IMG/VR virus record: IMGVR_UViG_3300032224_001473
Span: 2,489-66,488 of that record
DNA length: 64,000 nucleotides
DNA from: a virus
Reading direction: 5' to 3' (one strand)
In this document: piece by piece, positions 3,306-58,016 of the stretch
Numbering within the stretch: position 1 is the first letter of the stretch
Layout of the letters: each line of letters begins with the position of its first letter
Made by a program: the position numbers and the translations under genes
The notes under the pieces: generated by a model
The model's input: the letters and a program-made list of their open reading frames with translations, nothing else
What the model was told of the DNA's origin: nothing
Database searches by the model: none

Positions 3306-3335
3306 CCATTTTGTGTTTGTTTATATTTATTGAAT

Positions 3336-5677: not shown

Positions 5678-8600
5678 ATGATACAAAAACACAGAATTTC
5701 AACTAATTTAGGGGTTGACCAAAAGATTACAGTTGAGTTAAAACAAGATTTTGACGTATTGGAGATTCTATCTCTAAAATTTTCTCAACAAGAAATCTAT
5801 ACATCAATATGTTCGGACTATGGGGTTGTTTGTGGTAGAGTTACCGCTAACAATGGTTTTGGACTTGGAAATGCTCGTGTTTCTATTTTCATACCTTTAG
5901 ATACTGAAGATGAAGATAATCCTGTAATATCTAAACTATACCCATACAAAGAGGTTACAGATAAAGACGATTCTAATTATAGATATAATTTATTACCGTC
6001 AAGACAACAACACGGAGGACATGCGGCAACGGGAACATTCTTTGATCAATCTGATATTTTAACAAGAGAAGAGGTTTTAGAGGTATATGAAAAATATTAC
6101 AAATACACAGTAAAAACAAATAGTGCGGGTGATTTCATGATATGGGGAGTACCAGTAGGACCTCAAACAATTCACGTAGATGTTGACTTATCTGACATTG
6201 GTTGTTTCTCATTAAGACCATATGATCTACAAAGATTAGGTATTGGTACTGATGGATTTAAAAACAAATATACATTTAAGTCATCTGAAGATTTGGATTC
6301 CTTACCACAAATTGTGAGTTTTAATAAGATCATTGAGGTTTATCCATTTTGGGGGAACGAGGATTTATGTGAGATAGGTATCACAAGAAGTGATTTTGAT
6401 TTATCAGATAAAGGAGTTAACATAAAACCAACCGCATATTTGATTGGAGGTGTTTACACAGACAATGGTAAAAATTCAATCAATAAGAATTGTACTCCTA
6501 AAGCCAAAATGGGAAGAAAGTGTGATCTGTCCGCAAAATCTGCAAATATTGAAGCCATTAGATTTTTACCAATTAAAGACGATGATAATAGACCTTATTT
6601 AGAGTATCTTCCAATTGATGAGGATATTCCTGATGACGGTGGTTTTGTTTTACCGTTAGAAATGAATATGGATTATGTTATTACTAATGAATTTGGTGAA
6701 AATGAATATACAAATGACCCAAATAAAGGTATTGCAACATCAGCATGTTATCGTTTTAGATTTAATTTAAACGATAAAGGAGTTGAACGAGCAAGAAACA
6801 ACGCCGATTATTTAGTTCCTAACATTAGAGAATATGAAAATGATATTAATAGTTCATATTATTTTGGAACAGAATGGAGTGGATACCCACAAAATGCTGT
6901 TAGTGTGAATGGTAGTCACGGTATTTTATACAATGAAGGAGGTCAATTTTATCCAAGAGATTATTTTTATAGATTTAATTATAATAAAGTTTACACAGTA
7001 TCTTCCTTACAATCATCATATGTTAACAATGGAATATTTGGAAAAAATCAATATTTGGGGTTAAAAGAATTAGTCCCAAGTGAAGAAGAAGATTGTGCGG
7101 ATAACTTAACACCACCGGTAAATTTTGGGACTAAAAATTATACATTCACATTATTAATATCTGACGTTCTTTTATTTGCTGAACATTTAATAAATTTAGT
7201 AACATTAACATTTTTAAATGCATTAGTAAAATTACTTTTTACTATTGGTGATGCTGCGGATTTTAGACCGATACGAAGTTTAGCAAGAAGTATAAAACGT
7301 GCAGCATTTAGAGCGCAAGAAAATGCCCAAAGAAGACTCTACTTAATAAATTATCCTGAATGTGAAGAATGTAATGGTGATAATTCATTAGGTACAATTA
7401 TAAATTCTGGAGGACAAGCGGGACAACGTTGTTCTATTGGTTCAGTTACAATTGAAGGTGATTATATAGAAAATAATAGAACATTAACGGTTAATACAAT
7501 TTCATTTTTAGCAAGCACTGTGGGAAATTGTAGCGGACTTACAACAATTGATATTGTAACTTTTATTCAGACTCAAAATAATTATGTGATTTCTAGTAGT
7601 AATTACGGAGATTTAAATTTAACAAATCAATTTAGCGGTACTCCATCATATGGTACAGATGGAATTACTATAACGGGGTACACAGATATTAAATTTCAAG
7701 ACGATAGTGCATTGTTTGGCGAACCTTTTTCATACACATTAACCTTAAGAAGTGCAACCGATACTGAATCTAGTAATACTATTACAACCATAAATTTAGA
7801 AGAAGGTTGTGACATTTATGACACACCTTACGATGAATCATTAATTACATATTATTACATAGGTACGGGAAGAACAAAAGTTCCTTTTGTATCATTTATA
7901 CCTGGTAGTGATGTTACGGCAACAAATTTATCTGGAGATAATGGGTCAGGTTCTAATTACACATCAACGTTATCTGACGATATTTTTTATTATCCAAATG
8001 CGGGAGTACCATTGGTATCTGTGTGGGAAGGAGAAACTCATGAACGATTAACACCAAGTGGCCAATCAGAATTTCAAAATGGAGTCTTTACGGTTGTACC
8101 AGGGGCACAAACAACGGAAAGAATTTGGGAAATATTACGAGAATACAGAAGAAGAAAAAGAATAGGTAAATTATTTTGTGGAGGAATTGTTAACTACGGT
8201 TTTATAGATAATTGGTTATCCGGTTCGTTATATTTTTTCCAATTCAAAGCTAAAAAAGTTAATAAAGGAATTGAGAGTGTTATAAAATATTGTAGAAATG
8301 TTGTAAGATTTGTTGAAGGTCCAAACAGATTTTATTACCGTTCAGCTTTTAGTAGTAGTAACGGAACAACATTTACAAGATCTAATGGTATACTTGGATT
8401 TCCAACAACAATTGTTGATTTAGGACCAAGAGATGAATTTATTAAAGAAATTTGTATTGATAAAAATTTAGATCCTAACTGTTCAGTTTCACGTTCAATA
8501 GGTCCAACATCATTTAAAAGTTTTGGTGAATTAATGGGATTAGCAATTAACTATAGAATGGATACTAGTAATAATTCTTTTGGAATTGATAATTTCTTTG

Positions 8601-9460
8601 ATAATGCGGGATTCACAGGTCAAAGTTTTAATAAGGTATTTGATGGAGATTTATTACAATTAATTTCAATTAATAATGAAGCAGGTATTGAAGAGTTTGA
8701 TTTACAAAGTCCAAAATATATTGGTTATTCGTATCAAATTTTAGATCCTGATTTATATCCTAATGTGTTTAAAAAAGATGGATATTGGGGACCATTACCT
8801 GTAACGTTGGAATTAGACGAAGACGGTGAAAGAGTAAGGTTATGTTTAAATGAACCGGGGAGATTAACTGAATCATCACAAAAAGTTCCGTTTTATTTAT
8901 GGGATAAAAAAGGAACTGGATTTGGCGGAACAAGTGAAGCAACATCCGACGATCAATCATGGGATTATAGTTCGGTACAACTACAACCATTACAAGGTAT
9001 GACTTATGGTTACACATTAACAGGTGGGACAAACGATTCGTCAGACCAATATCTTTTATTACCAATAACAAATACATTTGGTGGTTTAGTTATAAGTGGA
9101 ATGAACTTAACTAACGAAATTGAATTTGATGTTGTATATTCAGGAACATCCACAGGATATATACAATACAATTCTGAATATCCAGGTTATACGGTTCTAC
9201 GAGTTACAGGTGGAACTATCAACGACCCAACTAGTGGTACGTTATATATTCGTTATGGATCCGCAGGAACTTGGCAAGTGATACCTTGGAATACAGGAGT
9301 TGATTTTATATTACCACAAAGACAAGATTATTATAGTGGTACAAAACAAATTCTCTCAACACCATACCAATTTTATTTTGGACTGAAAGCCGGCAAAACA
9401 GGGCTTGATAAGTTTATTGACCTATTTGGTCCTAAAGGAGCATTCCCATCAGCTGAATAA
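5678..9460 (+). CDS. Large baseplate/tail structural protein with an N-terminal carboxypeptidase-regulatory-like beta-sandwich
   Basis: GVVCGRV...NARVSIF and TNSAGDFMIWGVPVG patterns. Lies in the baseplate operon behind a TATTTAT box. Confidence 0.6.
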   Translation: MIQKHRISTNLGVDQKITVELKQDFDVLEILSLKFSQQEIYTSICSDYGVVCGRVTANNGFGLGNARVSIFIPLDTEDEDNPVISKLYPYKEVTDKDDSNYRYNLLPSRQQHGGHAATGTFFDQSDILTREEVLEVYEKYYKYTVKTNSAGDFMIWGVPVGPQTIHVDVDLSDIGCFSLRPYDLQRLGIGTDGFKNKYTFKSSEDLDSLPQIVSFNKIIEVYPFWGNEDLCEIGITRSDFDLSDKGVNIKPTAYLIGGVYTDNGKNSINKNCTPKAKMGRKCDLSAKSANIEAIRFLPIKDDDNRPYLEYLPIDEDIPDDGGFVLPLEMNMDYVITNEFGENEYTNDPNKGIATSACYRFRFNLNDKGVERARNNADYLVPNIREYENDINSSYYFGTEWSGYPQNAVSVNGSHGILYNEGGQFYPRDYFYRFNYNKVYTVSSLQSSYVNNGIFGKNQYLGLKELVPSEEEDCADNLTPPVNFGTKNYTFTLLISDVLLFAEHLINLVTLTFLNALVKLLFTIGDAADFRPIRSLARSIKRAAFRAQENAQRRLYLINYPECEECNGDNSLGTIINSGGQAGQRCSIGSVTIEGDYIENNRTLTVNTISFLASTVGNCSGLTTIDIVTFIQTQNNYVISSSNYGDLNLTNQFSGTPSYGTDGITITGYTDIKFQDDSALFGEPFSYTLTLRSATDTESSNTITTINLEEGCDIYDTPYDESLITYYYIGTGRTKVPFVSFIPGSDVTATNLSGDNGSGSNYTSTLSDDIFYYPNAGVPLVSVWEGETHERLTPSGQSEFQNGVFTVVPGAQTTERIWEILREYRRRKRIGKLFCGGIVNYGFIDNWLSGSLYFFQFKAKKVNKGIESVIKYCRNVVRFVEGPNRFYYRSAFSSSNGTTFTRSNGILGFPTTIVDLGPRDEFIKEICIDKNLDPNCSVSRSIGPTSFKSFGELMGLAINYRMDTSNNSFGIDNFFDNAGFTGQSFNKVFDGDLLQLISINNEAGIEEFDLQSPKYIGYSYQILDPDLYPNVFKKDGYWGPLPVTLELDEDGERVRLCLNEPGRLTESSQKVPFYLWDKKGTGFGGTSEATSDDQSWDYSSVQLQPLQGMTYGYTLTGGTNDSSDQYLLLPITNTFGGLVISGMNLTNEIEFDVVYSGTSTGYIQYNSEYPGYTVLRVTGGTINDPTSGTLYIRYGSAGTWQVIPWNTGVDFILPQRQDYYSGTKQILSTPYQFYFGLKAGKTGLDKFIDLFGPKGAFPSAE

Positions 9461-11358
9461 TGGAAAAGAAAGAAATATTATTACCAACCAAAAGGTACTT
9501 TAAGGCAGAAGAACAAGATTTAAATCTTAGCGTTAAGTTAGAAAATGATGAAACATTGTTAAGACAAGGTGATAAAGATATTGTTTTAAATTTAGCTGAT
9601 TTATTTAATGAAGAAAGAAATAAATCTATTAACTATAAAATTTACGGTAAAATAAAAATGGTATTTAGGAACATGTATTCAGGTTATACTCAATACCAAC
9701 CATTATTAAGGAACCTTTATTTATCAGGTGATGGTACAGGAAGTGATATTGGATTTGTACCATATAATGAATTTGCGTTTTTAAGAAATGATGTTGTAAG
9801 AGAAAAGACAACACCAAAATCAGGATCAACACTTGGATATCAAACTTCAGCACCGAGTATTACTTTAGATACGGGAACGCCGGTGGGTAGATACACGGGC
9901 CACACAACTATGTCATCGTTAGATGCACCATATAAAAATTGGAATTTGTATTTGAGTTATGTTGATTCACACGATACAGGATTCACAATGAATTATACAT
10001 TATCTGGAGACACAAATGGAGATAAGACATATTCATTTAAATCTAAAGATGGTATACCATTTAGGGTTGAATCAAATGATAATTATTATACATTAACATC
10101 ACCTGTTGAACATGGGATTTTACAAGGAGAACATATAATATTATCTGGATCAACAATGTTAAGTGGGTTGTCAATAAATAATAAAATTTTTTACGTTGAT
10201 AGTGTCGGAAATGAAATTTATAATTCAGAAAAATACGTAATAAATTTATTAAAAAGTGAACTTACTTTCGGTCATACATTAAGTGGAGTTACTTTTGTTT
10301 TGGGTAAAAGATGTATTGACGTAAATGATATAACAGGAACAACATCAACATATTACGTACATAAACATAAAACATTAACAACAATAGATGACTACATTTT
10401 AGATAAAGTTGGTTTTGAAAATTCAATATGGGAAGACGAAAGAAAAATATTATTTGAAAATACATTACAAGAGAATGATGTTTTAGTGGAAAGAAACAGA
10501 CAAGAGGCTTTGTTATTTGATTTTAAAAATACATTTTCATTATCAGGTATAACAAATAATTTAGGTTACACACCAACTGAGGTTTACGTCACAACAATTT
10601 TTAAAAATAGTAATGGATTATTTGATTACCCACCAAAAGTAGGATTTAAATTTAATTTTCATGGATCGGAATCACCAACAGGTGAAAAAATAGGTTGGAT
10701 TGATAATCAATTTAGTGGAACAACATCAGTTGAAAAGGCAATGAGTGGATTAACACAAACATTTAATGGTAAAAAAGTAACAATATTAGGTAATACATAC
10801 AATTATACGGGTACAACATTTACGGGCGGAACATCAATACCTTTAAACACAACCGGTATTACTGGTGCATTTGTTGAATATAATGAAAAAGAATTAAAGG
10901 AAAGAATTATAAGTGAAACATATCATAAGTTTTCACATTTAAAAATTGTAGGAGGAGTTCAAATATTTGATCATTATCAAGATCAATCAAGTTTTTATTC
11001 AGGTGCAACAACAGGTAATACGGTCGGTTATTACTATCAACCACATTATAGAGTTAAACTAAGGGAATTATCACCATATATTGAAACATCAAAACTTGAT
11101 GTAACGCAACCAAATACATTAGTTGATTTACCTGAAAACGCAATATACGACGAAAAAGAAAAACTTTGGAAATGGAGAGATCTTTATGATCACGGGTTTA
11201 TTGATCAAGAAGGAAACGGAACAAATTTTCCATTTATAAATAATACACATTACGTAATTAAAAACATTAATTTTTATTTAAGAAATGAAAAATCTTATAC
11301 AAATAAAAAAGATAATTTAAATGGATTTAATAACTATAAAAATAAAACTAACTGTTAA
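9460..11358 (+). CDS. Putative virion structural protein
   Basis: 632 aa, translationally coupled (TAATG) in the baseplate operon. Rich in [ST]GxT motifs. Confidence 0.6.
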   Translation: MEKKEILLPTKRYFKAEEQDLNLSVKLENDETLLRQGDKDIVLNLADLFNEERNKSINYKIYGKIKMVFRNMYSGYTQYQPLLRNLYLSGDGTGSDIGFVPYNEFAFLRNDVVREKTTPKSGSTLGYQTSAPSITLDTGTPVGRYTGHTTMSSLDAPYKNWNLYLSYVDSHDTGFTMNYTLSGDTNGDKTYSFKSKDGIPFRVESNDNYYTLTSPVEHGILQGEHIILSGSTMLSGLSINNKIFYVDSVGNEIYNSEKYVINLLKSELTFGHTLSGVTFVLGKRCIDVNDITGTTSTYYVHKHKTLTTIDDYILDKVGFENSIWEDERKILFENTLQENDVLVERNRQEALLFDFKNTFSLSGITNNLGYTPTEVYVTTIFKNSNGLFDYPPKVGFKFNFHGSESPTGEKIGWIDNQFSGTTSVEKAMSGLTQTFNGKKVTILGNTYNYTGTTFTGGTSIPLNTTGITGAFVEYNEKELKERIISETYHKFSHLKIVGGVQIFDHYQDQSSFYSGATTGNTVGYYYQPHYRVKLRELSPYIETSKLDVTQPNTLVDLPENAIYDEKEKLWKWRDLYDHGFIDQEGNGTNFPFINNTHYVIKNINFYLRNEKSYTNKKDNLNGFNNYKNKTNC

Positions 11359-12404
11359 TGGAAATATTAAAAAACAATACCAATTTAAATATTGTTATTA
11401 ACACAGAACAAAATTTTAGAACTGACCTAGGTTGGGAAGAAAATTTAGTTGAATTTGAAAAAGAAGTTTTGGAAGATATTATTAATCCAGCCAAAAATTA
11501 TGAAACAGTTAGATATATCCATAAACCATATACTAGTAGTTTAGGTTTATTACAATCTGACATATGGTTTAAATTTTATTTTAGAACAAGTGGAAATACA
11601 ACAAATTATGTTTTAGATTATAACCCAATTGGAATCACAACAAGAGAAAATGAATTAATGTTAAAACAATCTACGGAAAGTTTTTTCAGATTAGAATTTT
11701 TTAAAACACCGGGAGTAATTTCAAATACGGGAACAACATTAACATGTGAACCACCAACAAGACAAAATAGGAGACTTGTTAATAGTAGAAATCTTTCTTT
11801 ACCGTTAGGTGAAAAGTTTTTCTATACTACCAAAAATTCAGGTTATTATATTCATGTACCTGTTTTTACGGGATCAAATTATAGAAATAAAGAAAATATG
11901 TATTTGTTTTGGTTTGATGATGAAAGTACATTAACAGATACAAACTTAAGTGGAACAACAACATTGGATAAATATGTATTTGGAACGGGATCAACAATAC
12001 AAACTATTTTATTTACTAATGAGAACAATAACATAACACAAGTAAACATACCAACGAGTGGAACAACATTAGTTGGATGGGTGGGACAAACATTTACAAT
12101 TTCAAATCAAATAACATATTATAGAAATTTTTATCACGGAAAAAATACATTTTTTATGACAGGTAAATTTTTTAATGGTAAAGACGGTAGTATTGTAGAT
12201 TTTACAAATCAAGCTTTCAGTACGTCACATGTTATTACGGAAGAAAAAGATATGTACTATCAAGTAGATTTTGATCATTACGAAAGAACATATCAAGTAT
12301 ATAAATATAGTGGAACTACGGCGGGTAGTGTGGTTGGAAAAAGTACTACGGGACATACAACCGATGTTGAATTTTTTGAAAAAGGAGGAGGAACAATAAT
12401 TTAA
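11358..12404 (+). CDS. Putative virion structural protein
   Basis: 348 aa, coupled to the previous gene by a TAATG overlap. Confidence 0.6.
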   Translation: MEILKNNTNLNIVINTEQNFRTDLGWEENLVEFEKEVLEDIINPAKNYETVRYIHKPYTSSLGLLQSDIWFKFYFRTSGNTTNYVLDYNPIGITTRENELMLKQSTESFFRLEFFKTPGVISNTGTTLTCEPPTRQNRRLVNSRNLSLPLGEKFFYTTKNSGYYIHVPVFTGSNYRNKENMYLFWFDDESTLTDTNLSGTTTLDKYVFGTGSTIQTILFTNENNNITQVNIPTSGTTLVGWVGQTFTISNQITYYRNFYHGKNTFFMTGKFFNGKDGSIVDFTNQAFSTSHVITEEKDMYYQVDFDHYERTYQVYKYSGTTAGSVVGKSTTGHTTDVEFFEKGGGTII

Positions 12405-12406
12405 AA

Positions 12407-13855
12407 ATGAAAAGAAACGAATATACATTATTAAAAAGACAAATACCTGATGTGAATTTACATTCATTAACGGGACAATATTGGTTTGATTTTACAAATG
12501 CTTGGGTACCATGGAATAGTGGTTCGGGTATGATACCCGAAACAGGTAGTTTAGTACGTGATATTAGATGGTACACGGGTATAACGTATGATGAAGATAT
12601 TGTTTTATTTCACAGTGGTAGTACGTATAATTCTTTAACAGGATCAAATATTAATAACATACCATCTACAACCAGTTCTTTTTGGGAACCTATAGAACAA
12701 AGAGCAATTAATAATGAACAAGGAAAATATTATAAATGGAATGGTAATTCGTGGGGTCCATATGTAGGACCATTAGGTTATGATCAAGTAATTCCAATTG
12801 TACTTGAAGCAAACGCCGATGAAATGGGTGTGATGTCTTCTTTTGATGGTAATATGGAACAAGTAGAACAATTAGTAAATTTCACATATAAAGTATCGGG
12901 ATCAGTTGTAACAATTTACGGGACGACAAACCCCGATAAATTAAGAAAAATAGTTGATCAAGATTTTACGGTTGATTGGGGTGTTAAACAAAATTTAACT
13001 GGATCAATAATTACTGGATCACTACAAATTAATAAAGGGACTTTATATACTAATTTACCAACGGCGTCATTTAATTACACACCATATACATCGTCAAATA
13101 CAGGTTTATATGTAGAGACATATACAGGATCAAGAATTAGTAGTTTTGATGTTTCGGTTTATTTAAACTCACCATGGTCAAAACAAAAAATGACAAAAAC
13201 GATAACATTATTTAATACAGGTTCAATCACCGATAATGTTAATATATTAGGTACATGTACTGGTTTCACAACACCAAGTGGGTCTTTTTTAAATTATCTA
13301 AACGATTACGAATATTCTAATACAGGTTATACCGCAACACCATCAAAGTCATTTAAATTTATGGCAATAGGTATTAGTAAAATAGGTGAATTAAGAAAAT
13401 ACGGTGAAAGTACCGTAAGTACATCATCTTACACAACGGGTTCATTTTCAGGTTCATTATACTCGGGGTACACTTTACCTAATGACAGTGGAAGTTTATA
13501 TTATATGGATTTAGCGGATGGGTACACGATGATCACGGGTAGTGTATCAAACTATAGATTTGGACCAACTAGCGGTTATACATATGAAATATCAGGAAAT
13601 ACGATTAACACAGTACCGTATCTAACAACAAGTGGAAACACTACTCAATATGCTACGGAGTATGTGATAAATCATATGTTAACAAGAAACGAACATTTCA
13701 TCGGATTTATTGATGACCCAACTGTTTATTCTGACATTTTTGTTGAAAGAGGACGACAAGGAGTGATGGAACCAAATCTAAGATTAGGGGAGATTGATAA
13801 TATGAGTGAGTTAGAAGTTTATGGAAATGGATATTTTAAGGTGAGAAAACAATAA
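12407..13855 (+). CDS. Putative virion structural protein
   Basis: 482 aa in the baseplate operon. Rich in [ST]GS and [ST]GxT motifs. Confidence 0.6.
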   Translation: MKRNEYTLLKRQIPDVNLHSLTGQYWFDFTNAWVPWNSGSGMIPETGSLVRDIRWYTGITYDEDIVLFHSGSTYNSLTGSNINNIPSTTSSFWEPIEQRAINNEQGKYYKWNGNSWGPYVGPLGYDQVIPIVLEANADEMGVMSSFDGNMEQVEQLVNFTYKVSGSVVTIYGTTNPDKLRKIVDQDFTVDWGVKQNLTGSIITGSLQINKGTLYTNLPTASFNYTPYTSSNTGLYVETYTGSRISSFDVSVYLNSPWSKQKMTKTITLFNTGSITDNVNILGTCTGFTTPSGSFLNYLNDYEYSNTGYTATPSKSFKFMAIGISKIGELRKYGESTVSTSSYTTGSFSGSLYSGYTLPNDSGSLYYMDLADGYTMITGSVSNYRFGPTSGYTYEISGNTINTVPYLTTSGNTTQYATEYVINHMLTRNEHFIGFIDDPTVYSDIFVERGRQGVMEPNLRLGEIDNMSELEVYGNGYFKVRKQ

Positions 13856-13861
13856 AAATTA

Positions 13862-13869
13862 TATTTATA
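13862..13869 (+). promoter_or_regulatory. Putative late promoter TATTTATA (representative copy)
   Basis: The same TATTTAT core also starts at 3324, 5664, 19918, 20512, 22286, 25117, 28382, 34753, 37412, 39708, 41361, 48718, 57988 and 61729. Confidence 0.7.
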
Positions 13870-13879
13870 ATAAAAGTTT

Positions 13880-14800
13880 ATGGCAATAGGATCATACGGA
13901 ATAGTTAGACCAGCAGATGTATCACCAGATGATGTAGAAATTCTATATCATTATATGGCGGATAGAGTGGCTACGACAGCGGTTACGTTAAAAAAATTAA
14001 CAGCAAATCAGGTTTTAACCCCTATTTTTCATACAGGAACAACAACCAGTGACACGGCGGCCGTTGGTACTGAAATATTAGGTGGACTTTATAATTTAAA
14101 AATAAATGCGGCAGATTTCACAGAATTAGGAATTTATACACTTTATATTAGACCAAAACAAATAAGAACAACTGTTATGGATTGTGGAATCTTAGCGTCC
14201 CTACCTTCGGTTAGAGGAGTTGTAATAGATTTATCAAATGTTCCATCTGCGGATAGAAACAAGTTTACCCCACAAGGTTTAGTTGGTTATAGAATTGAAT
14301 ATATCAATCCAAACGATAATAAGAAATTACCTAACTTTTATAAGATAGTAACATCTTCTTTCTATTGTACACCTGTAACTGCAAACTTAAACACAACAAC
14401 ACAAAAATCAGTAAGATATCAATATAGTGAAGGTGCAACAAACTTCATGTTTTTGACGGTAACACCTTCATCGGCACCATCAAACAAACCGAATACGGTT
14501 CCTTTTATTGGAAGTCCAGGTCAAAAGATAATCTTATCAAATACATATTTCAATCCAACAACAATTGAAATTGATATGGTTGAACATGACGCTTCAACAC
14601 TTGCAAATGCTCTTTACGGTAATCAAACTAAGGCGGTTACTCCGGGTATTTACACAATCTACGATAAAGATAATAACATATACAGACAATATAACTTATT
14701 TGAGATTAAGGACGACTTTAACGAAACTCTTTATGAGGTTAGAGAAAAACGTACCGATATTGATGAAACTTTAAACTTTGATACAATTACAAATATCTAA
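13880..14800 (+). CDS. Putative virion structural protein
   Basis: 306 aa behind its own TATTTATA box, coupled to the next gene. Confidence 0.6.
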
Positions 14801-17800
14801 TGGCAAAATATAAAGTTCCAAGTCAAGCTGCAAGTGGTGCTGATACATTCAGCGACAATCTAGTAGGTAATCAGATTACCACAGGTACCGGTCAATTGAC
14901 TAATACGAACTTTGCATTAGATAGTGAGGTAATACAAAGAGACACAAAGAATTTTAAAACAAATCCATTTTCAAACTTTTTAACTTTAGATGATCTAAAA
15001 ATTGAAACAGATACTTTATCTACAGATGAGATCGCTAAAAGAAAAAAGGAAATTAAATTTAAAGGTTCTAAAAGTGATGCAGGTAAATCTTTATTCGGAT
15101 CTTTAAAAAGTAGATTAGGTGTTGCAACACAAAATATTGTTCGTAATTTTCCAGCGGGTATTTTAATTGACTCAGCGAGTTTAATTAGTGCTAGTGGATT
15201 AACCGCAACAAATATAACTTATAATATCCAAAACAATACCACTCAATTTGATATTGAATATAGTATGTTGTATAATCCATTTTCGGTTATAACAACAACA
15301 CCAAAAAGTAAGGACAATAAATCTTCATATAATCCAATAAGAGATTTTTATAATTCATTTAAAAAATATGTCATTACTGTTAGTGGTAAAACATACGTTA
15401 TAACATCATATACTGAACCAAATAGTAAAAATGTAATTAAATTAAAAGTAAAAGGAAAACCATTTGGAACTTCAACTGAATATACTGAAGATATTTTAAT
15501 TAGACCAAATGATGGTATAGTTGAGGAGTTTTTTAAAGGTTTAGATGATTTAGAGGAAAGTCTTTTAAATAGAGAAACTTCACCAATATACACAGCAAGT
15601 TTTAAGGTTCCTAGAGATAGCTTTGATCAAACAAAAACGGAATTAGTATCGGTAAACTATACGTGGCCTTTATCTGAAAAAGATAGTTGGAATATTAAAA
15701 TAACAGGATTAGAGTATGAAGATTATTTAAGAAAATTAAGAAATATTTCAGATGAGATTGACGATTATAAATCTAATTTATTTCTAAGATTTTTAACGTC
15801 ACCACAATTGTTTGAATTTGATTCTCCAAATAAAAAGGCGGAATCAATATTTCAACTTTACGGTCAATCATTTGATAACGTAAAAAAATATATTGACAAC
15901 ATTGCTTACATGAGAAATGTAAGTTATGATGGAATCAATAACGTACCTGATGTGTTATTAAAAAACTTAGCGAACACTTTAGGTTTAGATACGGTTAATT
16001 TAATTGATGAAAAAGGTTTAGATGAATTACTATACACTAAAACATCACAACAATATTCAGGTTTAGTATCGGGTACATCTTTATTGGATGCTGAGTTTGA
16101 ATTTTATAGAAGATTATTAGTAAACTTAGCGTACATTTATAAATCAAAAGGTACAAGACAATCATTAGAATTTTTCCTAAGATTCTTGGGGGCTCCTGAA
16201 CCAATGATTAAAATTAATCAATACGTTTATAAAGTAACGTCATATCCTAAATCATTTGATCTTGAGTTGGACGTATATAAGGCAACAACGGGTAAAAACA
16301 TTATAAAAACTGCGGTATTTTTACCAACCGGAGGAACAATAGATAAAGTGGTATATTCGGGATATTCATACTACATAAAATCAACAACTGGTTATACATC
16401 CTTAAATATGGATGGTTATCCTGTTAATTTAATTACATTACAACCAAAATCTATAACAGGTTCTACTGATTTATTTTTTCAAAAAGGATCGGGTTGGTAC
16501 GATAATACTGCTACTCATAAATCACCATTAGTTTTAGATAAAGATTTATCTAATGGAACCACTATAAATGGTGAGTTTGTGTTAACAGGTAGAACAAAAA
16601 CTATTATTACTAAAGACAGTCCACGTACATATGGTGAAGATTATTTTAATGTATATAGAACATTACCCGGATTAGATACTGGTTACGGATTAGAAACGGT
16701 TATTGATAATAATCAAACAGAATTAATTGGTGATGAATCTCATTTAATTTTAAACAGAAAAAATATTGAAGTTTATTTGTCGTCAGCACAAGCAGTTGAT
16801 TATGACATTTATCGTAGATCTAGAGATTTACCAACAACATTCGGTACAAATAGCTTAGAACCACAAACGGGTGTTACTTTCGCTGAATATGTTGATTTAA
16901 TGATACACCAACAAATTAAAAATTCTAATTTAATAAAATATAAAAAGAATTATATTACATTAGAAGACATATACCAAGATTATATTTCACGTACAGAATT
17001 TGTTCCATATACTTTCCCTGACATTAATTTATTTATTGAGAAAATGAGTCCATATTGGACAAGTGTAATTGATCAAATTATTCCGTCAACAACATTATGG
17101 ACAGGTGGTAATTTAATTAGTAATAATATTTTTGGTAGACCAAAGTATCAATATAAATACGGATGTCAACCAATTGAGATAATTGATAATTTATATCCAG
17201 CGAAAAATGGATATGATAGATATTTTATGGATATCGTTGATGAATATGATAACGATATATTCAGCGAGGTTAATTCAATCGGAGAATATAAATACGATGG
17301 TCGAATCTATATATTTCCAACTTTTGAAATAGATGGGGTCACATATTCAGGAACAACCGGTAATACAACATCAATTACAAGCATTACTGGATTAACATAT
17401 GTTTTATTATCAGGTATAACAAACACCACAAATAGTGCTAAATTATATGAACCTGATGGTAGTGGAAATGCTTATGCAATGACTAGTGGTACTAAAAATA
17501 CTATTAATCCTAATTATGATAAAATAGAAGAACTATGGCAAACGGCCATTTTAAACACTATTGAATATATAAATAATTGTACCAATTGTCCTTATTCTGG
17601 TCTTACGGTTGACAATTTAGGTTATATAAGTTCATATGATCCATTTCTTAACGCTCCAGGTGAAAAAGCCACACCAAAAATTAGAAAAAAATTATTAACA
17701 GGTAAAATTTTTATTGATAATAATGGAGAAGAAAAAATTAAGTTAACATCATATAAGTATGGTCCTAATGATTGTGCAACTGATATATACGTTGATTTAA

Positions 17801-19902
17801 TTGCAAGTGCATTTACAGATACTTACGATTGTTCATTGGGACAAGGGTCTGCCATATATCAAATGGCAACACCTACACCAACTCCAACACCAACTGTTAC
17901 ACCAACACCAAATCCAACAGCAACACCAACACCGGAACCAACTGCGACACCAACTGCAACACCAACTGCAACACCGACAGCAACACCAACTGTTACACCA
18001 ACACCAGGACCGACTAGTACACCAACATTAACCCCAACTCCAACACCAACGCCGAATTGTAATTTTAATGTTGACACAGAAATAGTAACTAGTACTCCAA
18101 CACCAACACCTACACCAACGCCAAATTGTAATTTTGATGTTAATATAGAAATAATAACTAGTACACCAACACCTACACCAACTCCAACTGTTACACCTAC
18201 ACCTACACCGGATTGTAATTTTGATGTAGATATAGATATTATAACTAGCACACCTACACCTACCCCAACTTCAACACCAACACCTACACCAACACCAAAT
18301 TGTAATTTTGACGTAGATATAGATATTATTACTAGTACACCAACACCTACACCAACTCCAACTGTTACACCTACACCAACGCCGGATTGTAACTTTGACG
18401 TAAACGTTAACATTACAACTTCAACCCCAACACCTACCCCAACATTAACACCAACACCGGAACCCACTAATACCCCAACTAGTACCCCCACACCAACAGC
18501 AACACCAGGACCGACTAGTACACCAACATTAACCCCAACTCCAACACCAACGCCATTTTATGATATAGTTTCTTATGGTGGACCTAGTGTAGGGGATGCT
18601 TGCTATAGTCCATGGGATAGTTTTTCAATGTTAGGGAATACAACCGATTTCTGTACATTAGGAACATTAACAAGTAGTTCTTGGGTAACTATACCAACAA
18701 ATAATTACTACGTAGTTTATAACGGCAACGTTAGAAACGTACAACATACTTTAGGTAATAATTTTGCACAAACAACAGATGTTGGATGTGGAACTTGTCC
18801 TACCCCAACCCCAACACCGGTACCAACTAATACACCAACACCAACCCCAACACCAACAATTGTTAGGTATTATTACGAAGGTTTACTTTGTGGAGGTAAC
18901 ATCGTTGGGAATTTCTATTCAGAAACAAATTTAGGAGATAATCCAGGTATTGTTTACGCATATTCATCTCTTGGTGGAGAATCTAATAGATGTTTTGATT
19001 ATATAACACCAACTAATACACCAAACAATAATCCTATAATTGCAACATTTGAAGATTGTTCAACTTGTTTAGGTGAACCACCGACTCCAACACCATTACC
19101 AACCAATACACCAACACCGGTACCAACGGCAACACCGATACCAACTAGTACACCTGTACCAACACCTACACCAACGCCGGTTCCTTTTTCAGGACAAATA
19201 TATTATGGATCTACAATAAGTAGTGTATGTCCTTATGGGGCGGGTAGTAGTGGTTTTGTAACGGGAGACGGAACGACATTTTGTGGTAGTCAATATTTCA
19301 CAGGTAATACATTCGCATACCAATCATCAGGTTTCTATTATATGAACTTTGAAGGTAATGTGGTACAAATATCATTAACTTATGGTTCTAATGTTGTTGA
19401 AGTAATGAGTGCTTGTTTATCTTGTCCTACACCAACACCAACACCTGTACCAACTAATACACCTGTACCAACTAATACACCAACACCGGAACCAACAGCA
19501 ACACCTGTACCGACTAATACACCAACACCAACACCATTACCGGACGGTGTTTTAAGTTTTGGATCTACAGATGGTGGACAACAACCATGTGGACCTGGTT
19601 ACGGACCTAATGACTATGAGTATTATAGAACATATGAGGTTAATTTCACAAGTGCAAGAATAATAATGGGATATGTTGTTGTTATTTTAAGTGATTATTC
19701 AACTATAACAATACCATTTAATGAAAATGATACCTCCGCATCTAAAACCGTTTTCTGTGGATGTGGATCACCATGTGCTGACATGTCATATGTAATGAAT
19801 ATAATATACACTACACCAACTCCAACCCCAACATTAGAACCAACATTTACACCAACACCAACAACTGAAGGAGGTGGAGGAGGTGGACTAGTACCTGAAT
19901 AA
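14800..19902 (+). CDS. Baseplate/tail protein (P2 gpI/gp7-like core) with a C-terminal Pro/Thr-rich, Cys-rich extension
   Basis: [10 protein letters not shown] and [22 protein letters not shown] resemble tail protein I-like wedge proteins. The C-terminal ~680 aa are PT repeats alternating with Cys modules. Confidence 0.65.
17866..18554 (+). repeat. Pro/Thr tandem repeats containing five CNF(D/N)V-x-x-x-I-x-TS units, bounded by a 55-bp exact direct repeat
   Basis: Identical 55-mers at 17999-18053 and 18500-18554, with five Cys-containing units between them. Confidence 0.9.
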
Positions 19903-19941
19903 AACAAAATAATAAGATATTTATAAAAAGAAACAAAATAT

Positions 19942-20442
19942 ATGAACGTAACATTTACATTAACATCAGCAACATCGGGAACAACTGCATCTACTGTATT
20001 TAATATTTCAGGAAAAACATCTTCAAATGTTGTTAGTGAACTTGCAACAGGTATAACTAAATTACAATTAACAACTGGACACACAATTAATGGTGTTAAT
20101 GATGCAATAACAGGTGGAACAATAGCAAGTACAAGCCCAAGTTCTTGCACAGGAGTTACAACAACTTGGTTGGTCATACAACCAACACCAACACCAACCC
20201 CAACAGCAACACCGGTATCAACGTACTATGTTTATGAATTATGTGGTTGGTCAGACCCATCAGAACGTTATAAATATATACTATATAGTAACACATATGG
20301 TAGTAAAGGTTTAGTTAATGGAACAACCTGTTCATTATTAGATAGTGGACCTACTGCTATAACATATGCATCAGTAGGGACATTATACCCACTAGCAATG
20401 CCAATGATTTCATTTACAACCAATAATTGCGAATGTAATTAA
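19942..20442 (+). CDS. Small Thr/Cys-rich putative virion protein with a PT linker
   Basis: 166 aa. TATTTATA box upstream and terminator downstream. Confidence 0.7.
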   Translation: MNVTFTLTSATSGTTASTVFNISGKTSSNVVSELATGITKLQLTTGHTINGVNDAITGGTIASTSPSSCTGVTTTWLVIQPTPTPTPTATPVSTYYVYELCGWSDPSERYKYILYSNTYGSKGLVNGTTCSLLDSGPTAITYASVGTLYPLAMPMISFTTNNCECN

Positions 20443-20463
20443 TAAAAAACTTATAACAATATT

Positions 20464-20491
20464 AAAACCCCTTTATTTTAAGGGGTTTTTT
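20464..20491 (+). terminator. Rho-independent terminator
   Basis: AAAACCCCTT-tatttt-AAGGGGTTTT stem followed by T. Confidence 0.8.
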
Positions 20492-20523
20492 GTTTAATTT
20501 ATACATAATACTATTTATAGAAT

Positions 20524-22266
20524 ATGCCAGAATATTTTAGTGCAAATGTAAACATCGGAAAAAAAGGTAACTCAATTGAAAAAGTTAGTTTATATGCTTG
20601 CTCTGGATCAACAGAACAAACATGTGACCCTACACCAATTTCGGGTTACAATAATATTCTATGGACAGATACAAAATTTTCACCACTTTTTGAGAGCGGT
20701 TCGTATCCATCATTATCAGGATTAGTAACATTTATAACGGGATTAACGTTATACACGCACACATATATTAGAGTATTAACAACATCAAGTTATAATGATC
20801 CTTGTGTAATTAGTAGAATGATACCAATTAGCGGTATCCCAACACCTACCCCAACCCCAACACCGGTACCAACTAATACACCAGTACCTACAGCTACACC
20901 AACTGCAACACCTACATTAACTCCAACACCGGTACCAACTAATACACCAACGGCGACACCAACGGCGACACCTACATTAACACCTACACCAACACCAACT
21001 ATTACACCAACTCCAACACCTACACAAGAAGTTGTTGATACTAATTTATATTATTACTATAGGTTAGGTGATTGCCAATATATGGGTTACACAACGCAAC
21101 AAATAACAAATACAGGATTTGGTATTATACGAATTACAGGTTTATGTTCTTCATATATAACTAATTTTTTAGAAGATCCAGCACATACATCATATTACAC
21201 TGATTACAACGATCCTTGTGGTTTTGCAAGTGGATACACATATACTGTATTTGGTAAAAGTTTAAAATCTAATCCACATATACCGGAAGGTACTGTTTTT
21301 ACAATCGGAGATCAATGTTTATCGGTAGTATGGATAGAAGAACAATATTTACCTGTATCGATTTCTTTAATTAGTTTAGACGGGTTAACTCCTGAACCTG
21401 GTGATAATCCTTGTAATACTTGTCAACCACCATTTACTGGATTAACATTTAATTGGTATGTTTATGGTGCAACAAGATGTGATGACCCAACAAGTAATAT
21501 TTTAGTTTATAGTATATTCCCTTACACATATGATGCAACACCATATGCGCCGAACAATATAACAGGGTTACCTAAATTATCGTCATTACAGACAGGATTA
21601 ACATATTCAATGGTAACATATAACTCAAGTGGTGATGTTATTGATGATGGATATTGTGCAACTATTACAAGTTATTATGGAGTATTTACAGGTCAAACAG
21701 TACAAGTTCCATTATTACCACTTACAGATCCTGTAACATATAAAAACTTACCAATAGGAGTTCAAGCAGTAGAGGGTCATTATTCATTGGATTGTCCAAG
21801 TTGTACTCCATTATATTATGCCAACACCGCTCAAAAATGTGGTAGTGGGTATGAATTAAGTGACGATCCGATTTGGTCAACAGTAAAATTAAACGAAGGT
21901 GATATAATAAAAGACAATAATGGTGTTTGTAGAAGAGTATTGTATGCAAACTCATATAGAGATACAAAATATGAAGGATATTGGCAATCACAAGCTCATA
22001 CTGGAATTATAAGTATGGTGGGTACTAAGTATACAAATAATGATTGTAGTAGTTGTACATCTGGTGGATCCACAGTAGTGTGTGATAGTTATACCATGTT
22101 AAATACAGACCATAATTATGATACATATTATTCATATGACGATTGTGATGGTAATACACAAACGGGTTCATTAGGACCTAATAGAGACATGACATTCTGT
22201 GCTGAACGAGGAAGTGTTTCCACAGGAGGAGCTGATTTGACAAATAATGGAACATGTACATCTTAA
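20524..22266 (+). CDS. Cys-rich putative virion/adhesin protein with a PT linker
   Basis: 580 aa with a PT repeat and repeated YY..C...CxxC modules. TATTTATA box 4 nt upstream of the ATG. Confidence 0.7.
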
Positions 22267-22297
22267 CAATAAAATTAAAGAAAGATATTTATAACAT

Positions 22298-24424
22298 ATG
22301 AGTTTTTTAAATAGTAATAATTCGGAGTTCTTGTCAGCAAGAATAACCAATAGAGGTAGAAAGGCAATAGCTAATGGTAATTTTAATATCCAATATTTCC
22401 AAATTGGAGATTCCGAATATGATTATACAACACCTTTTAATAGTTTAACGGGAACTACAGGACAACAAAAAGTATTTGCACCATTTGATTATGAATCAGG
22501 AGTAAAATATCCTTTTGGGTTGGATAGTACAATTTCAACAACTTACGGAACACCAATATCAAATAATAAAACAGTTACATTAAGAAATGAAATGGGTCCT
22601 GCTGGATTTGTTTCAAAATATTCAAGTACACCAACAATTAAAACCAAAACACAACAAATTGCTTATTCTAAAATAAGCGGAACAACTAGTTTAGTTGTAC
22701 CAACAGGAACCACATTTAATGGTTGTGAATATGTTACATTGGTATTTGATAGTTTTTCGGGAACAACAATAACAGGTAAAACAAATAGTTTAATTTATAA
22801 AATTAGTGGTATAACAGGAAATACAATTGTATTGGATCGTAATTTACCAAACTTAACTAGTTCAGGTTTAACAGGTAATGCACAAGTTGTTTGTAATAAA
22901 TGTTTGATTGAGGCACTATCAACTAATTTAATTGAACCAATTGATTATACAGCACAATTAAACTCATGGACATTAAATACCATTTGGTCAGATAAACCAA
23001 TTGGTTGGAACTCTGGAGATGAAGAATTGTCAGGTTATGAAAGCAATAAATATGTTTCAATTAAAAATTATTTAGGATATACAAAAACAGGACAAACTTT
23101 TAATAATTTTACGGGAGGTACAATAACTGGAACATCTTTTGCCAATTCATTTTCATCAGGATCAACACATGAATTAATTCAAGTTTTACCATCAGAACAA
23201 AGATGTGTGGCAATTTTACATTACTCAGAATTAGGTGATATTTTAATTGATCCCGAAAGATTTTTTAAGTACGATGATTACATAAGTTCATTAACAGGAA
23301 CAACAGGAACAAGTATTTCATTATTTGGAGATTTAGATAGTTCGGATAGAGACTATAATAAAAGTGACAATGATTATTTTGAAGTTTATGTTCCGTTTAT
23401 TTACTATCATAGAAATACAGGTAATACCTTAGGTGCTCTATTTACGATGGATAAAACAGATTATTATGTTAAATCAACAATTAATTCAAGACACCAACTT
23501 AAATTTAGATATCTATTAGATGAACAAGGATATAAAGTTGGAAAAGTTTTTGTGAACAATAAAATCATTGTTTTTGATGATCAGGAATTGGTTGCAATTT
23601 TAGATTATAGATCAAATAGAAGATATACTTTACCTTCACCTAAATTAGGTTTATTACCAATTGATGGTAATATTAGTAACTCAATGTTATCAACAACAGG
23701 AGTTACCGCATGGGTTACTTACATGTTTGAAAATACAAGTGGTAATACTTTAAATTCACTACCATGTAATTACTATAATAAAATTACAAGTAACGGTACA
23801 CCTTCACAAATAACGATGAAATTTAATACGGGTAATACTTTTTCAAACATGATTATTTCAACATCAGATTTAACTGATGGATTTCTTGCTAATAAATTTT
23901 ATGCATTAGTACAAACAGGAAACACCCCAACTTCAGATAATTGGAAAAAAATTGACATCACATCACAAGTAACAGGATTTACGAACGGTTATATAAATCC
24001 ATCAAGTTTAAAAGATGTTTCATTTGTTATTTCATATTCAGGTTATTCATCAGCGTCTAATTTTGATTTAGAAACACATTTAACACCAATCTCAACAGAT
24101 TATTTAAGTTATACAGGATCAACTTTACCACAATTTGGAGATGAACAACCGTTCCCCGGTAGTGTTAGATTGGTTAGGGCAACAGATATTGAAGAAATGA
24201 ATATGATAATTAATTTACCCACGGGAACGTTTGGAGACACACCAAACAGTAATGGTGGATATTCACAAAATCCAACTTATCCAAAAACAGGAACATTACC
24301 TCCAACATATATTACTGAAGTTGCGTTGTTAGATGGTAATAAAGAACCGTTAGTTGTTGCTAAAACACCAACACCGGTAAAAAGAGCCGGAACACAAGTA
24401 TTTGCTATTAAATTAGATTTCTAA
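22298..24424 (+). CDS. Putative baseplate/tail structural protein
   Basis: N-terminal ARITNRGRK..A.GNFNI.YFQIGDSEYDY and C-terminal YITEVALLD...LVVAK...PVKR...IKLDF resemble phage tail-collar/baseplate proteins. Confidence 0.65.
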   Translation: MSFLNSNNSEFLSARITNRGRKAIANGNFNIQYFQIGDSEYDYTTPFNSLTGTTGQQKVFAPFDYESGVKYPFGLDSTISTTYGTPISNNKTVTLRNEMGPAGFVSKYSSTPTIKTKTQQIAYSKISGTTSLVVPTGTTFNGCEYVTLVFDSFSGTTITGKTNSLIYKISGITGNTIVLDRNLPNLTSSGLTGNAQVVCNKCLIEALSTNLIEPIDYTAQLNSWTLNTIWSDKPIGWNSGDEELSGYESNKYVSIKNYLGYTKTGQTFNNFTGGTITGTSFANSFSSGSTHELIQVLPSEQRCVAILHYSELGDILIDPERFFKYDDYISSLTGTTGTSISLFGDLDSSDRDYNKSDNDYFEVYVPFIYYHRNTGNTLGALFTMDKTDYYVKSTINSRHQLKFRYLLDEQGYKVGKVFVNNKIIVFDDQELVAILDYRSNRRYTLPSPKLGLLPIDGNISNSMLSTTGVTAWVTYMFENTSGNTLNSLPCNYYNKITSNGTPSQITMKFNTGNTFSNMIISTSDLTDGFLANKFYALVQTGNTPTSDNWKKIDITSQVTGFTNGYINPSSLKDVSFVISYSGYSSASNFDLETHLTPISTDYLSYTGSTLPQFGDEQPFPGSVRLVRATDIEEMNMIINLPTGTFGDTPNSNGGYSQNPTYPKTGTLPPTYITEVALLDGNKEPLVVAKTPTPVKRAGTQVFAIKLDF

Positions 24425-24463: not shown

Positions 24464-25072
24464 ATGAGTATAGATATTAATTTCAAAAACAAACCAAAGA
24501 TTTTAGGATTGGATATTTCCACTAAAACTATTGGGTTTGCATTGTTTGATATGACAGGTTCTAAATTATTAGAACTAACACATTTTTCACCAAAAATTAA
24601 ACCACAACCTGAAGATAAGATTGAGGAGTTAATTAAAAAGGCAGATGCATTTAAAAAACATTTGGAAAGTTATAAAGACATGGGAATTCTTCGTGTTATC
24701 ATTGAAGAACCATTGTTGCAGTCAAATAACATCTATACTATAGGAACATTATTACGTTATAATACATTGATACTTAAGAACTGTTATGATGTGTTAGGAG
24801 TGTTACCAACATTCATTTCAACGTATAACTCAAGAAAATTTGCATTCCCTGATTTGGTTGGTCCAAATGATAAAGGACGTAATGTTTTATTTGGTGGATA
24901 CCCAAGAGATATTGATAAGAAACACGTTATTTGGGAACACGTTAATAGTGTATGTCCTGATATCAATTGGTTATACGGTAAAACGGGTAATCTTAAAAAA
25001 GAAAATTATGATATGGCAGATGCCGCATGTTGTGTTATTGGTTATGTTAACATGAACAAACAAACATCTTAA
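24464..25072 (+). CDS. RuvC-like Holliday junction resolvase
   Basis: ILGLDISTKTIG, VIIEEP and C-terminal DMADA acidic residues of the RNase H fold. Confidence 0.8.
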   Translation: MSIDINFKNKPKILGLDISTKTIGFALFDMTGSKLLELTHFSPKIKPQPEDKIEELIKKADAFKKHLESYKDMGILRVIIEEPLLQSNNIYTIGTLLRYNTLILKNCYDVLGVLPTFISTYNSRKFAFPDLVGPNDKGRNVLFGGYPRDIDKKHVIWEHVNSVCPDINWLYGKTGNLKKENYDMADAACCVIGYVNMNKQTS

Positions 25073-50922: not shown

Positions 50923-50937
50923 AAATTTTAATTATAA

Positions 50938-57915: not shown

Positions 57916-58016
57916 AAAAAAACAAATTAGTAATAAAAATATATTGAAAAATAATAGAAATAACTCGGTAGATGTAATAAAACACACTATTTATAAACAA
58001 AACAAACACAAAGTAG

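Follow-up and report, generated by a model that had tools for sequence, protein, structure and literature searches.

Mycobacteriophages of the Che8 type reportedly glycosylate their virions; in work attributed to Freeman et al. in 2023, the targets are said to be stretches at the C-termini of capsid and tail-tube subunits in actinobacteriophages. The glycosyltransferases of these systems are encoded by the phage near its structural genes and reportedly O-glycosylate proteins of the virion in the cytoplasm. Capsid glycosylation has also been deduced from two phage glycosyltransferases (PMC11256854). Here we describe a four-residue protein motif, [ST]GxT (Ser or Thr, Gly, any residue, Thr), in a 64,000-nucleotide stretch of viral DNA, positions 2,489 to 66,488 of the IMG/VR virus record IMGVR_UViG_3300032224_001473. 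This whole stretch is called the window below. The motif is strongly enriched in a block of nine genes at 5678-24424, most of which probably encode exposed tail proteins, and it may be a recognition site for glycosylation by a phage-encoded system. Glycosyltransferases conserved in the lineage and located among virion genes, the hallmark of the mycobacteriophage type, were found in complete relatives of this phage and not in the window. In contrast to the mycobacteriophage systems, the candidate sites here are dispersed four-residue motifs in the peripheral tail and outer sheath of jumbo myophages, the capsid is inconsistent, and the case is known from sequence alone.

Several other systems offer partial parallels. 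In chlorovirus PBCV-1, the major capsid protein is N-glycosylated on Asn at atypical sequons by virus-encoded enzymes. The candidate system here would likewise be virus-encoded cytoplasmic machinery with its own non-canonical short acceptor motif, but PBCV-1 is a eukaryotic virus with N-linked glycans on a single capsid protein, whereas the Ser/Thr motif here is spread over many tail proteins. Bacteroidota O-glycosylate exported proteins in the periplasm at D-(S/T)-(A/I/L/V/M/T). The common trait is a short Ser/Thr-centred sequon, used proteome-wide there, although the motif itself differs. The autotransporter heptosyltransferases Aah and TibC are said to recognise a strand-loop-strand structural motif, as credited to Charbonneau et al. 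in 2012. There too, Ser/Thr residues lie in short loops between β-strands with many sites per chain, and a cytoplasmic O-glycosyltransferase acts on a surface protein; however, those bacterial adhesins have regular 19-residue β-helix repeats, whereas the motifs here are irregularly spaced in phage tail components. Cytoplasmic glycosylation in Actinobacillus (NGT with Agt) is a further likeness in that a phage protein of about 355 amino acids (aa) is remotely similar to AmGGT, but the initiating NGT uses N-x-S/T. In the glycan shields of enveloped animal viruses, the number of N-x-S/T sites is kept while their positions shift on exposed, fast-evolving surface proteins. Such shields involve host machinery, N-linkage and envelope glycoproteins, unlike the phage tail and hypothetical phage enzyme considered here. 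Among the papers listed in literature searches for the motif, none was relevant, and searches on phage glycosylation sequons and on glycosylated structural proteins of jumbo phages yielded nothing on it.

Enrichment and residue specificity of the motif

[ST]GxT was counted in 45 long plus-strand open reading frames (ORFs) of the window and compared, protein by protein, with 2000 residue shuffles. In the nine-gene block, 82 motifs were counted, while 12.6 are expected from whole-protein shuffles. This is a 6.5-fold enrichment, and it reaches 12- to 17-fold in the top proteins. Shuffling within local windows gave expectations of 15.4 (20-aa windows) and 16.7 (10-aa windows), and the highest block counts in 1000 local shuffles were 27 and 32, respectively. 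The reversed, composition-matched motif T.G[ST] occurs 19 times in the block. Together, the local shuffles and the reversed motif rule out a composition or low-complexity artefact. The remaining 32 non-collagen ORFs of the window contain 4 motifs in total versus 3.1 expected. When all gapped tripeptides in the block were scanned, TGxT (47 versus 8.0) and SGxT (35 versus 5.2) were outranked only by Pro-Thr linker motifs.

An earlier sequence-only reading of the window by a model had counted about 16 motifs in the 632-aa protein and about 19 in the 708-aa protein, with recurrence in six further proteins. All of these counts were reproduced, the signal in the protein at 5678-9460 being weak, and the observation proved stronger than that reading had stated. 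It was also right that enzymes and the gp6-like wedge protein lack the motif: none of 11 [ST]G dipeptides fit it at 877-3138 (ribonucleotide reductase by PHROGs), none of 5 at 31665-34001 (SbcC/Rad50-like by PHROGs) and none of 6 in the gp6-like protein at 3790-5622. One correction concerns the block itself, in which the 306-aa protein is motif-poor. The relevant genes are as follows, with observed versus expected motif counts from whole-protein shuffles.

3330-3788, plus strand: gp25-like baseplate wedge protein (Pfam GPW_gp25, E 1e-9); 0 motifs; anchors the block as a tail module
3790-5622, plus strand: gp6-like baseplate wedge protein, the closest link to a cultured phage (Flavobacterium phage immuto baseplate wedge protein, 28.5% identity over 99% of length); 0 motifs among 6 [ST]G
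5678-9460, plus strand: 1260-aa protein directly past gp6; 5 versus 1.41, p 0.018 (weak), local-shuffle p 0.036-0.071; no Pfam or PHROG family
9460-11358, plus strand: 632-aa protein, the strongest carrier; 16 versus 0.92, z 16
11358-12404, plus strand: 348-aa protein; 7 versus 0.73
12407-13855, plus strand: 482-aa protein; 8 versus 1.14
13880-14800, plus strand: 306-aa conserved protein, an internal negative; 1 versus 0.32
14800-19902, plus strand: 1700-aa protein with Pro-Thr linkers; 13 versus 4.08; PHROG 15511 and 38031, function unknown
19942-20442, plus strand: 166-aa protein; 7 versus 0.93, at residues 12, 23, 36, 45, 57, 70 and 135
20524-22266, plus strand: 580-aa protein; 6 versus 1.68 (moderate), p 0.0065, local-shuffle p 0.001; PHROG 15511, function unknown
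22298-24424, plus strand: 708-aa protein, the second strongest carrier; 19 versus 1.63, z 14
24464-25072, plus strand: 202-aa RuvC-like protein (PHROG RuvC-like resolvase, E 4e-6); 0 motifs; end of the motif block
61985-64000, plus strand: 672-aa protein, open at its 3' end and beyond the range of the sequence-only reading; 6 versus 2.56, p 0.03, local-shuffle p 0.002-0.006

The 672-aa protein matches the same PHROGs (15511 and 38031) as the 1700-aa protein and has two motifs in its first 28 residues. In the 166-aa protein, 6 motifs fall within residues 1-73, and a Pro-Thr linker comes next. Inspected by eye, the 166-aa and 672-aa proteins look alike at their N-termini (19942-20100 and 61985-62100), with a short β-rich unit, SGxT turns and then a Pro-Thr linker. 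Such linkers (TPTPTP...) occur at 14800-19902, 19942-20442 and 61985-64000 and give the top tripeptide enrichments in the block, e.g. TPxP with 83 versus 3.9 expected. Pro-Thr linkers are often O-glycosylated in other systems.

The two main carriers are unrelated apart from the motif, as had been supposed: hhalign of the 632-aa against the 708-aa family gave a probability of 1.7%. This value and the lack of a common Pfam or PHROG family among the main carriers rule out a shared domain that carries the motif. Neither Pfam nor PHROGs placed the main carriers in a family, save for unknown-function PHROGs among the carriers and one weak, sub-threshold Pfam match, Prophage_tailD1, in the 708-aa protein. 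No tblastn match to the 632-aa, 708-aa or 482-aa protein was found among 50,697 phage records. The identity of the carriers as tail proteins therefore rests on synteny. The motifs are dispersed and not tandem, with spacings from 4 to 70 residues and no period in the 632-aa protein.

The residues of the motif depend on each other. In the numbering used here, the Ser or Thr is position 0 and the final Thr is +3. After [ST]G, Thr occurs at +3 in 82 of 165 cases (4.0-fold), while Ser at +3 stands at 0.74-fold, and Thr at +3 after a Gly not preceded by Ser/Thr stands at 0.92-fold. The residue before G.T is enriched for Thr (3.15-fold) and Ser (3.6-fold), unlike Asp (0.89-fold) and Asn (0.34-fold). 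Neither [ST]G.S, [ST]A.T nor [ST]N.T is enriched in the block. [ST]GxT is a coupled, hydroxyl-specific unit.

Two known sequons do not account for it. In the block, depletion is seen for the Bacteroidota sequon D[ST][AILVMT] (9 versus 25.9 expected, z -3.3), whereas the window's other 32 proteins show no depletion (33 versus 23.8). This agrees with the low value for Asp before G.T and with the earlier statement that the motif is distinct from that sequon. N-[not P]-[ST] is not enriched in the block either (68 versus 90 expected, z -2.7).

Selection on the motif acts on the protein, since the codons at the three fixed positions are synonymous-diverse. Thr at position 0 is encoded by ACA, ACG, ACT and ACC and Ser by AGT, TCA, TCT, AGC and TCG; Gly is encoded by GGA and GGT, and Thr+3 by all four codons. 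This diversity across non-homologous carriers rules out a DNA-level motif and bears out the protein-level selection assumed by the sequence-only reading. The rare codon ACG makes up 14 of the 47 Thr codons at position 0 and 80 of 781 in the whole block; this over-use at the motif may be a codon-pair effect before GGN.

Turnover and tail location among relatives

The window covers about 20% of the genome of a jumbo myophage of about 300 kb; its source record has 66,488 bases and is 20% complete by the CheckV estimate. Every gene in the window is on the plus strand, and the guanine-plus-cytosine (GC) content is about 30% over most of it. More than 100 IMG/VR relatives each were found for the 632-aa and 708-aa proteins, on contigs of up to 335 kb, and three complete relatives (335, 310 and 287 kb) were examined.

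Alignments of 58 sequences per family were used to follow the motif, with identity to the window protein of 54-89% (632-aa) and 50-77% (708-aa). The 58 orthologues carry a median of 12 motifs in the 632-aa family (range 5-18) and 14 in the 708-aa family (range 5-22). In the same two families, control motifs have medians of 2 and 2 (reversed), 1 and 2 ([ST]G.S), 1 and 0 (NG.T) and 0-1 (DG.T). Density is held in all orthologues across 45-89% identity. The positions, in contrast, shift. When alignment columns within four positions were merged into sites, the 632-aa family had 23 motif sites and the 708-aa family 46, but only 6 and 5 of them are shared by at least 70% of the sequences. Gains and losses were counted by parsimony on trees with midpoint rooting; there were 70 gains and 73 losses for the 632-aa family and 176 gains and 70 losses for the 708-aa family, figures that depend on the rooting and on the alignment of variable loops. 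By this count, 12 and 28 sites, respectively, were gained at least twice independently. Turnover of positions at constant density, for which the sequence-only reading had suggested a test, is thus found among orthologues. At conserved sites, Ser and Thr swap freely at position 0, x is free, and Thr+3 is sometimes Ser.

The neighbouring proteins were counted in 21 to 87 related loci per family, with the genes of relatives taken as longest-ORF calls from ATG. Motif counts and median identities are listed by family.

1260-aa protein: median 5 motifs (range 2-11) in 21 loci; median identity 59%
632-aa protein: median 11 motifs over related loci; median identity 55%
348-aa protein: median 5 (range 2-12) in 60 loci; median identity 47%
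482-aa protein: median 8 (range 4-15) in 66 loci; median identity 41%
1700-aa protein: median 16 (range 8-21) in 35 loci; median identity 63%
708-aa protein: median 14 over related loci; median identity 52%
gp6-like protein: median 0 (range 0-1) in 68 loci
306-aa protein: median 0 (range 0-2) in 73 loci; median identity 75%
202-aa protein: 0 motifs in 76 loci

The motif-free gp6-like, 306-aa and 202-aa proteins have 75-82% identity, so the carriers are the less conserved proteins.

In the complete relatives, enrichment is seen in the same block and also in the tail sheath and two other proteins, one of 519 aa and one of about 1900 aa. The sheaths have 7, 7 and 5 motifs. All 19 of these lie N-terminal to the conserved sheath core, where 3.8 are expected; the core has 0 versus 0.5 expected, a difference too small to be significant by itself. 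The equivalent sheath domains outside the core face outwards in T4. The gp23-like major capsid protein of the three relatives has 3, 2 and 0 motifs. Since this enrichment is inconsistent, the pattern is tail-centred and not virion-wide. The sequence-only reading had called it virion-wide, which holds for multiple tail proteins and is too broad for the capsid.

Outgroups show at most a 1.8-fold excess. The tail module of immuto has 22 motifs versus 12.2 expected, and a 484-kb uncultured phage with a homologous gp6 has 1 versus 1.6 expected downstream of gp6. A search of 1.84 billion representatives with a profile built from the 632-aa family yielded 614 proteins at E ≤ 0.001. Within the best 150 of these 614, 82 full-length homologues (ranks 10-150) were examined. 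They have a median of 1 motif (range 0-6) and 129 motifs in sum, versus 30.7 expected and 40 for the reversed motif. Because 18 of the 82 have none, the fold does not require the motif. In one lineage (P0045-like), gp6 is 56% identical and the gene order is conserved; its 632-aa homologue is 27% identical with 4-5 motifs, and its 482-aa homologue has 5. For a motif-free 632-aa homologue (P0010), no relative was found in IMG/VR, and no clean motif-free lineage with neighbouring genes was obtained. The tendency to carry the motif is old in the wider family and strongest in the clade of the window.

Elsewhere, the window encodes two DNA adenine methyltransferases at 30067-31665 and 45157-46128, one of Eco57I/N6_Mtase type and one of D12/Dam type, a ClpP protease at 34043-34720 and a sigma-70 factor at 36611-37420. 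Three giant collagen-like proteins (725, 2325 and 1212 aa) lie at 48745-61655; the two that were scanned matched Pfam Collagen with E 3e-52 and 5e-69. They consist of G-T-S and G-S-S triplets with a local GC of 0.38-0.41 versus about 0.30, and [ST]GxT is depleted in them. These giants are probably whisker-like or hair-like fibres.

Candidate glycosyltransferases and possible O-glycosylation

The sequence-only reading saw no glycosyltransferase gene in the window and pointed elsewhere in the genome. A family scan agreed on the absence, and the complete relatives do encode such enzymes, including a conserved pair in the structural-gene region. Matches to GT2 over the Pfam cut-off numbered 5, 2 and 3 in the three complete relatives. 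One GT2 protein of about 260 aa is present in all three with 65-69% identity. A second GT2 is also common to all three, as a 505-aa double-domain protein in two genomes and with 226 aa in the third. For the GT2 of about 260 aa, 231 matching stretches were found in IMG/VR; the top 80 are 64-100% identical, as conserved as core genes, and all come from the same phage family. An ORF of about 355 aa abuts this GT2 and has weak GT1 matches. Its only clear relative in the PDB is the Actinobacillus glucosyltransferase AmGGT (8xsg), a remote match with E 5.6e-6 and 29 bits over about 190 residues. Homologues of AmGGT add glucose to glycans already linked to peptides (PMC12159676). The glycosyltransferase pair sits between the capsid and sheath genes, beside a late-sigma-factor-like gene, in the following unit.

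L175:13469-16006 (G001 133469-136006), minus strand: conserved three-gene unit in complete relatives, with an 8xsg-like glycosyltransferase (about 351 aa), a GT2 (about 259 aa) and a late-sigma-factor-like protein of 233 aa (PHROG 234, E 9e-5)

Epimerase or dehydratase genes were over the cut-off in two of the three complete relatives (5 and 2).

We propose that Φ-[ST]-G-x-T-Φ, with Φ a hydrophobic residue, would be a short loop or β-turn element that is kept dense in the exposed, fast-evolving parts of the tail in this lineage. These parts would be the baseplate periphery, fibre-like proteins and the outer part of the sheath. The motif may serve a cytoplasmic glycosyltransferase system encoded by the phage, either as its acceptor or as the site that it recognises. 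The O-glycosylated hydroxyl would most likely be that of position 0, where Ser or Thr may be equally accepted, while Gly and Thr+3 would be recognition elements on folded strand-loop-strand units. The outcome would be a sugar coat on the tail.

A trans-acting recognition site predicts the combination of unrelated carriers, exposed and fast-evolving parts, lineage and hydroxyl specificity, and constant density with shifting positions, and this combination resembles the dynamics of sequons on viral surface proteins. O-glycosylation is ranked first due to this pattern and because the conserved glycosyltransferases are the only candidate enzymes seen. We give the reading of the motif as an O-glycosylation sequon a probability of roughly 0.38, ahead of a purely structural explanation that is nearly as likely. 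The more specific claim of phage-encoded cytoplasmic O-glycosylation with a private [ST]-G-x-T sequon and an evolving glycan coat on sheath, baseplate periphery and fibres is tentative and somewhat less probable. In that claim, the system would be encoded by a globally distributed family of jumbo phages of about 300 kb, and its sequons would come and go as in the glycan shields of animal viruses.

Several observations weigh against O-glycosylation. No glycosyltransferase was found in the window or its 66-kb record, which covers about 20% of the genome. One complete relative has no epimerase or dehydratase gene, and no sugar nucleotidyltransferase was found in any of the four records scanned. 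The glycosyltransferases of the relatives could act on DNA or host polysaccharide instead. Proteins outside the tail do not avoid the motif: the rest of the three complete proteomes has 72 versus 53, 44 versus 29.5 and 69 versus 43.7 expected, a mild excess of 1.35- to 1.6-fold. Some conserved sites have Asn at position 0, for example in about 14 of 58 sequences at one site. Asn cannot be O-glycosylated, and this swap fits a role in an Asx/ST-turn. At some sites the motif is close to fixation (56 of 58 and 54 of 58 sequences). Across the loci of the clade, motif density does not covary consistently between proteins (Spearman -0.13 to 0.55), and such weak, inconsistent covariation does not discriminate between the readings. 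Finally, no modification has been observed in this uncultivated phage; a modified residue, a sugar as the modification and the conserved pair as the enzyme are all inferred.

Structural context, rival readings and meaning

The strongest rival, which we hold to be only a little less probable than O-glycosylation, is a favoured tight β-turn or strand cap with nothing attached. In such an element, Gly would sit in the turn, the Ser/Thr side chain would cap the backbone and Thr would open the next strand, and the T-rich, all-β, fast-evolving tail proteins of the lineage would simply reuse it. It stays close behind because the flanks look like a β-hairpin, Asn occurs at times at position 0, some sites hardly vary and there is a mild excess in other proteins. 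Flanks were measured over 309 motif instances from 32 enriched proteins. At -1, hydrophobic residues are favoured 1.8-fold (Ile, Leu and Tyr each about 2-fold), while charged residues stand at 0.18-fold and Gly at 0.2-fold. Pro is depleted at x (0.13-fold). Hydrophobic residues are favoured again at +4 (1.4-fold), with a preference for Ile, Phe and Ala, and Asn and Thr are favoured at +5. Charged residues are depleted over -2 to +5. Hydrophobic flanks, depletion of charge and depletion of Pro all favour a turn and count against O-glycosylation as the better explanation. The flanks fit a short hairpin with both hydroxyls on one face, but fit equally an acceptor loop on a folded β-unit.

Predicted secondary structure likewise fits the two readings about equally well. 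AlphaFold2 models built from the 58-sequence alignments are of moderate confidence, with a predicted local distance difference test (pLDDT) score of 70.3 for the 632-aa protein and 72.6 for the 708-aa protein. In these models, the motifs lie in loops adjoining β-strands. Over their 35 motifs, Gly is coil in 29 and x in 27, and strands are common on either side, an arrangement that counts for the turn and for O-glycosylation alike. DSSP states over the four motif positions were E--E in 4 of 35 (the pattern of a two-residue hairpin), ---E in 8 of 35 (Thr+3 being the first strand residue) and all coil in 12 of 35, and the first two patterns count for the turn. The motif thus stands at strand ends as well as starts and is not one structural element, which argues against the turn reading. 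The models comprise several domains that mix strands and short helices and are not solenoids. A regular structural repeat had been named in the sequence-only reading as an outcome that would speak against modification; none was seen, given the aperiodic spacing, the non-repetitive fold and the depletion of the motif in the collagen-like proteins, though no tandem-repeat finder was run. Neither model matched the PDB in Foldseek at E ≤ 0.001. A VIA wide search with the 632-aa model matched nothing beyond a small β-barrel (residues 191-291), where Z reached 7.7 and stayed in the noise range. This barrel resembles FAD-binding and E1 FCCH-type barrels at noise level. ESM Atlas scores were 0.82 or less, and a neighbour cluster with PF16190 E1_FCCH at 0.80 is likewise noise level.

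Further support for a turn comes from the several sites present in at least 90% of orthologues, from the Asn seen now and then at position 0, and from the mild excess in the immuto tail (22 versus 12.2), in the rest of the proteome and in distant homologues (129 versus 30.7). However, in a generic turn, position 0 should also be open to Asn or Asp, and +3 to Ser, Val or Ile, and none of these is enriched. Homologues found with the same profile are often motif-free (18 of 82), outgroup tail modules have little or no excess, and sites were gained repeatedly, with 12 and 28 merged sites gained two or more times. To our knowledge, there is also no precedent for a lineage in which one type of loop makes up about a quarter of all loops in several proteins without common origin.

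It is considerably less probable that the motif serves another trans-acting factor, such as a phosphorylation-like modification, an assembly chaperone or a decoration protein. The lineage-specific, multi-protein pattern with turnover and hydroxyl specificity would fit such a factor as it fits glycosylation. On the other hand, glycosyltransferases are the only candidate enzymes seen, though no search for a kinase or other modifying enzyme was made, and 12-19 copies per chain at shifting positions are hard to square with the defined assembly expected of a chaperone or decoration site. Least probable is a relic of shared modules, in which the carriers would be mosaics of an ancestral [ST]GxT β-hairpin unit that duplication and recombination had spread, with the motif as its last visible trace: mosaicism is general among tail fibre genes, PHROG 15511 and 38031 recur in three of the proteins and motifs cluster locally (six in 73 residues of the 166-aa protein), but the two main carriers have no detectable similarity beyond the motif, the flanks carry little information, the spacing is irregular, and decay to about one motif per protein would be expected, yet density is held at 45-89% identity with frequent gains.

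If the motif is an O-glycosylation sequon, phages beyond the actinobacteriophages would coat their virions with sugars. With a private sequon, the system would be the first in a phage whose protein glycosylation is defined by a sequon, and it would be readable from sequence. Such a rule would allow modified sites to be predicted from metagenomes. Tail surfaces would then evolve under selection for a glycan layer, perhaps for protection, adhesion or masking from recognition by hosts or grazers. If the motif is instead structural, one lineage would have converged on a single loop solution in many unrelated proteins, which would be useful for protein design, and the motif would help to recognise the exposed parts of unannotated tail proteins. 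Either way, in this widespread family of uncultivated phages, [ST]GxT picks out the proteins of the tail periphery, which lack Pfam or PHROG annotation.

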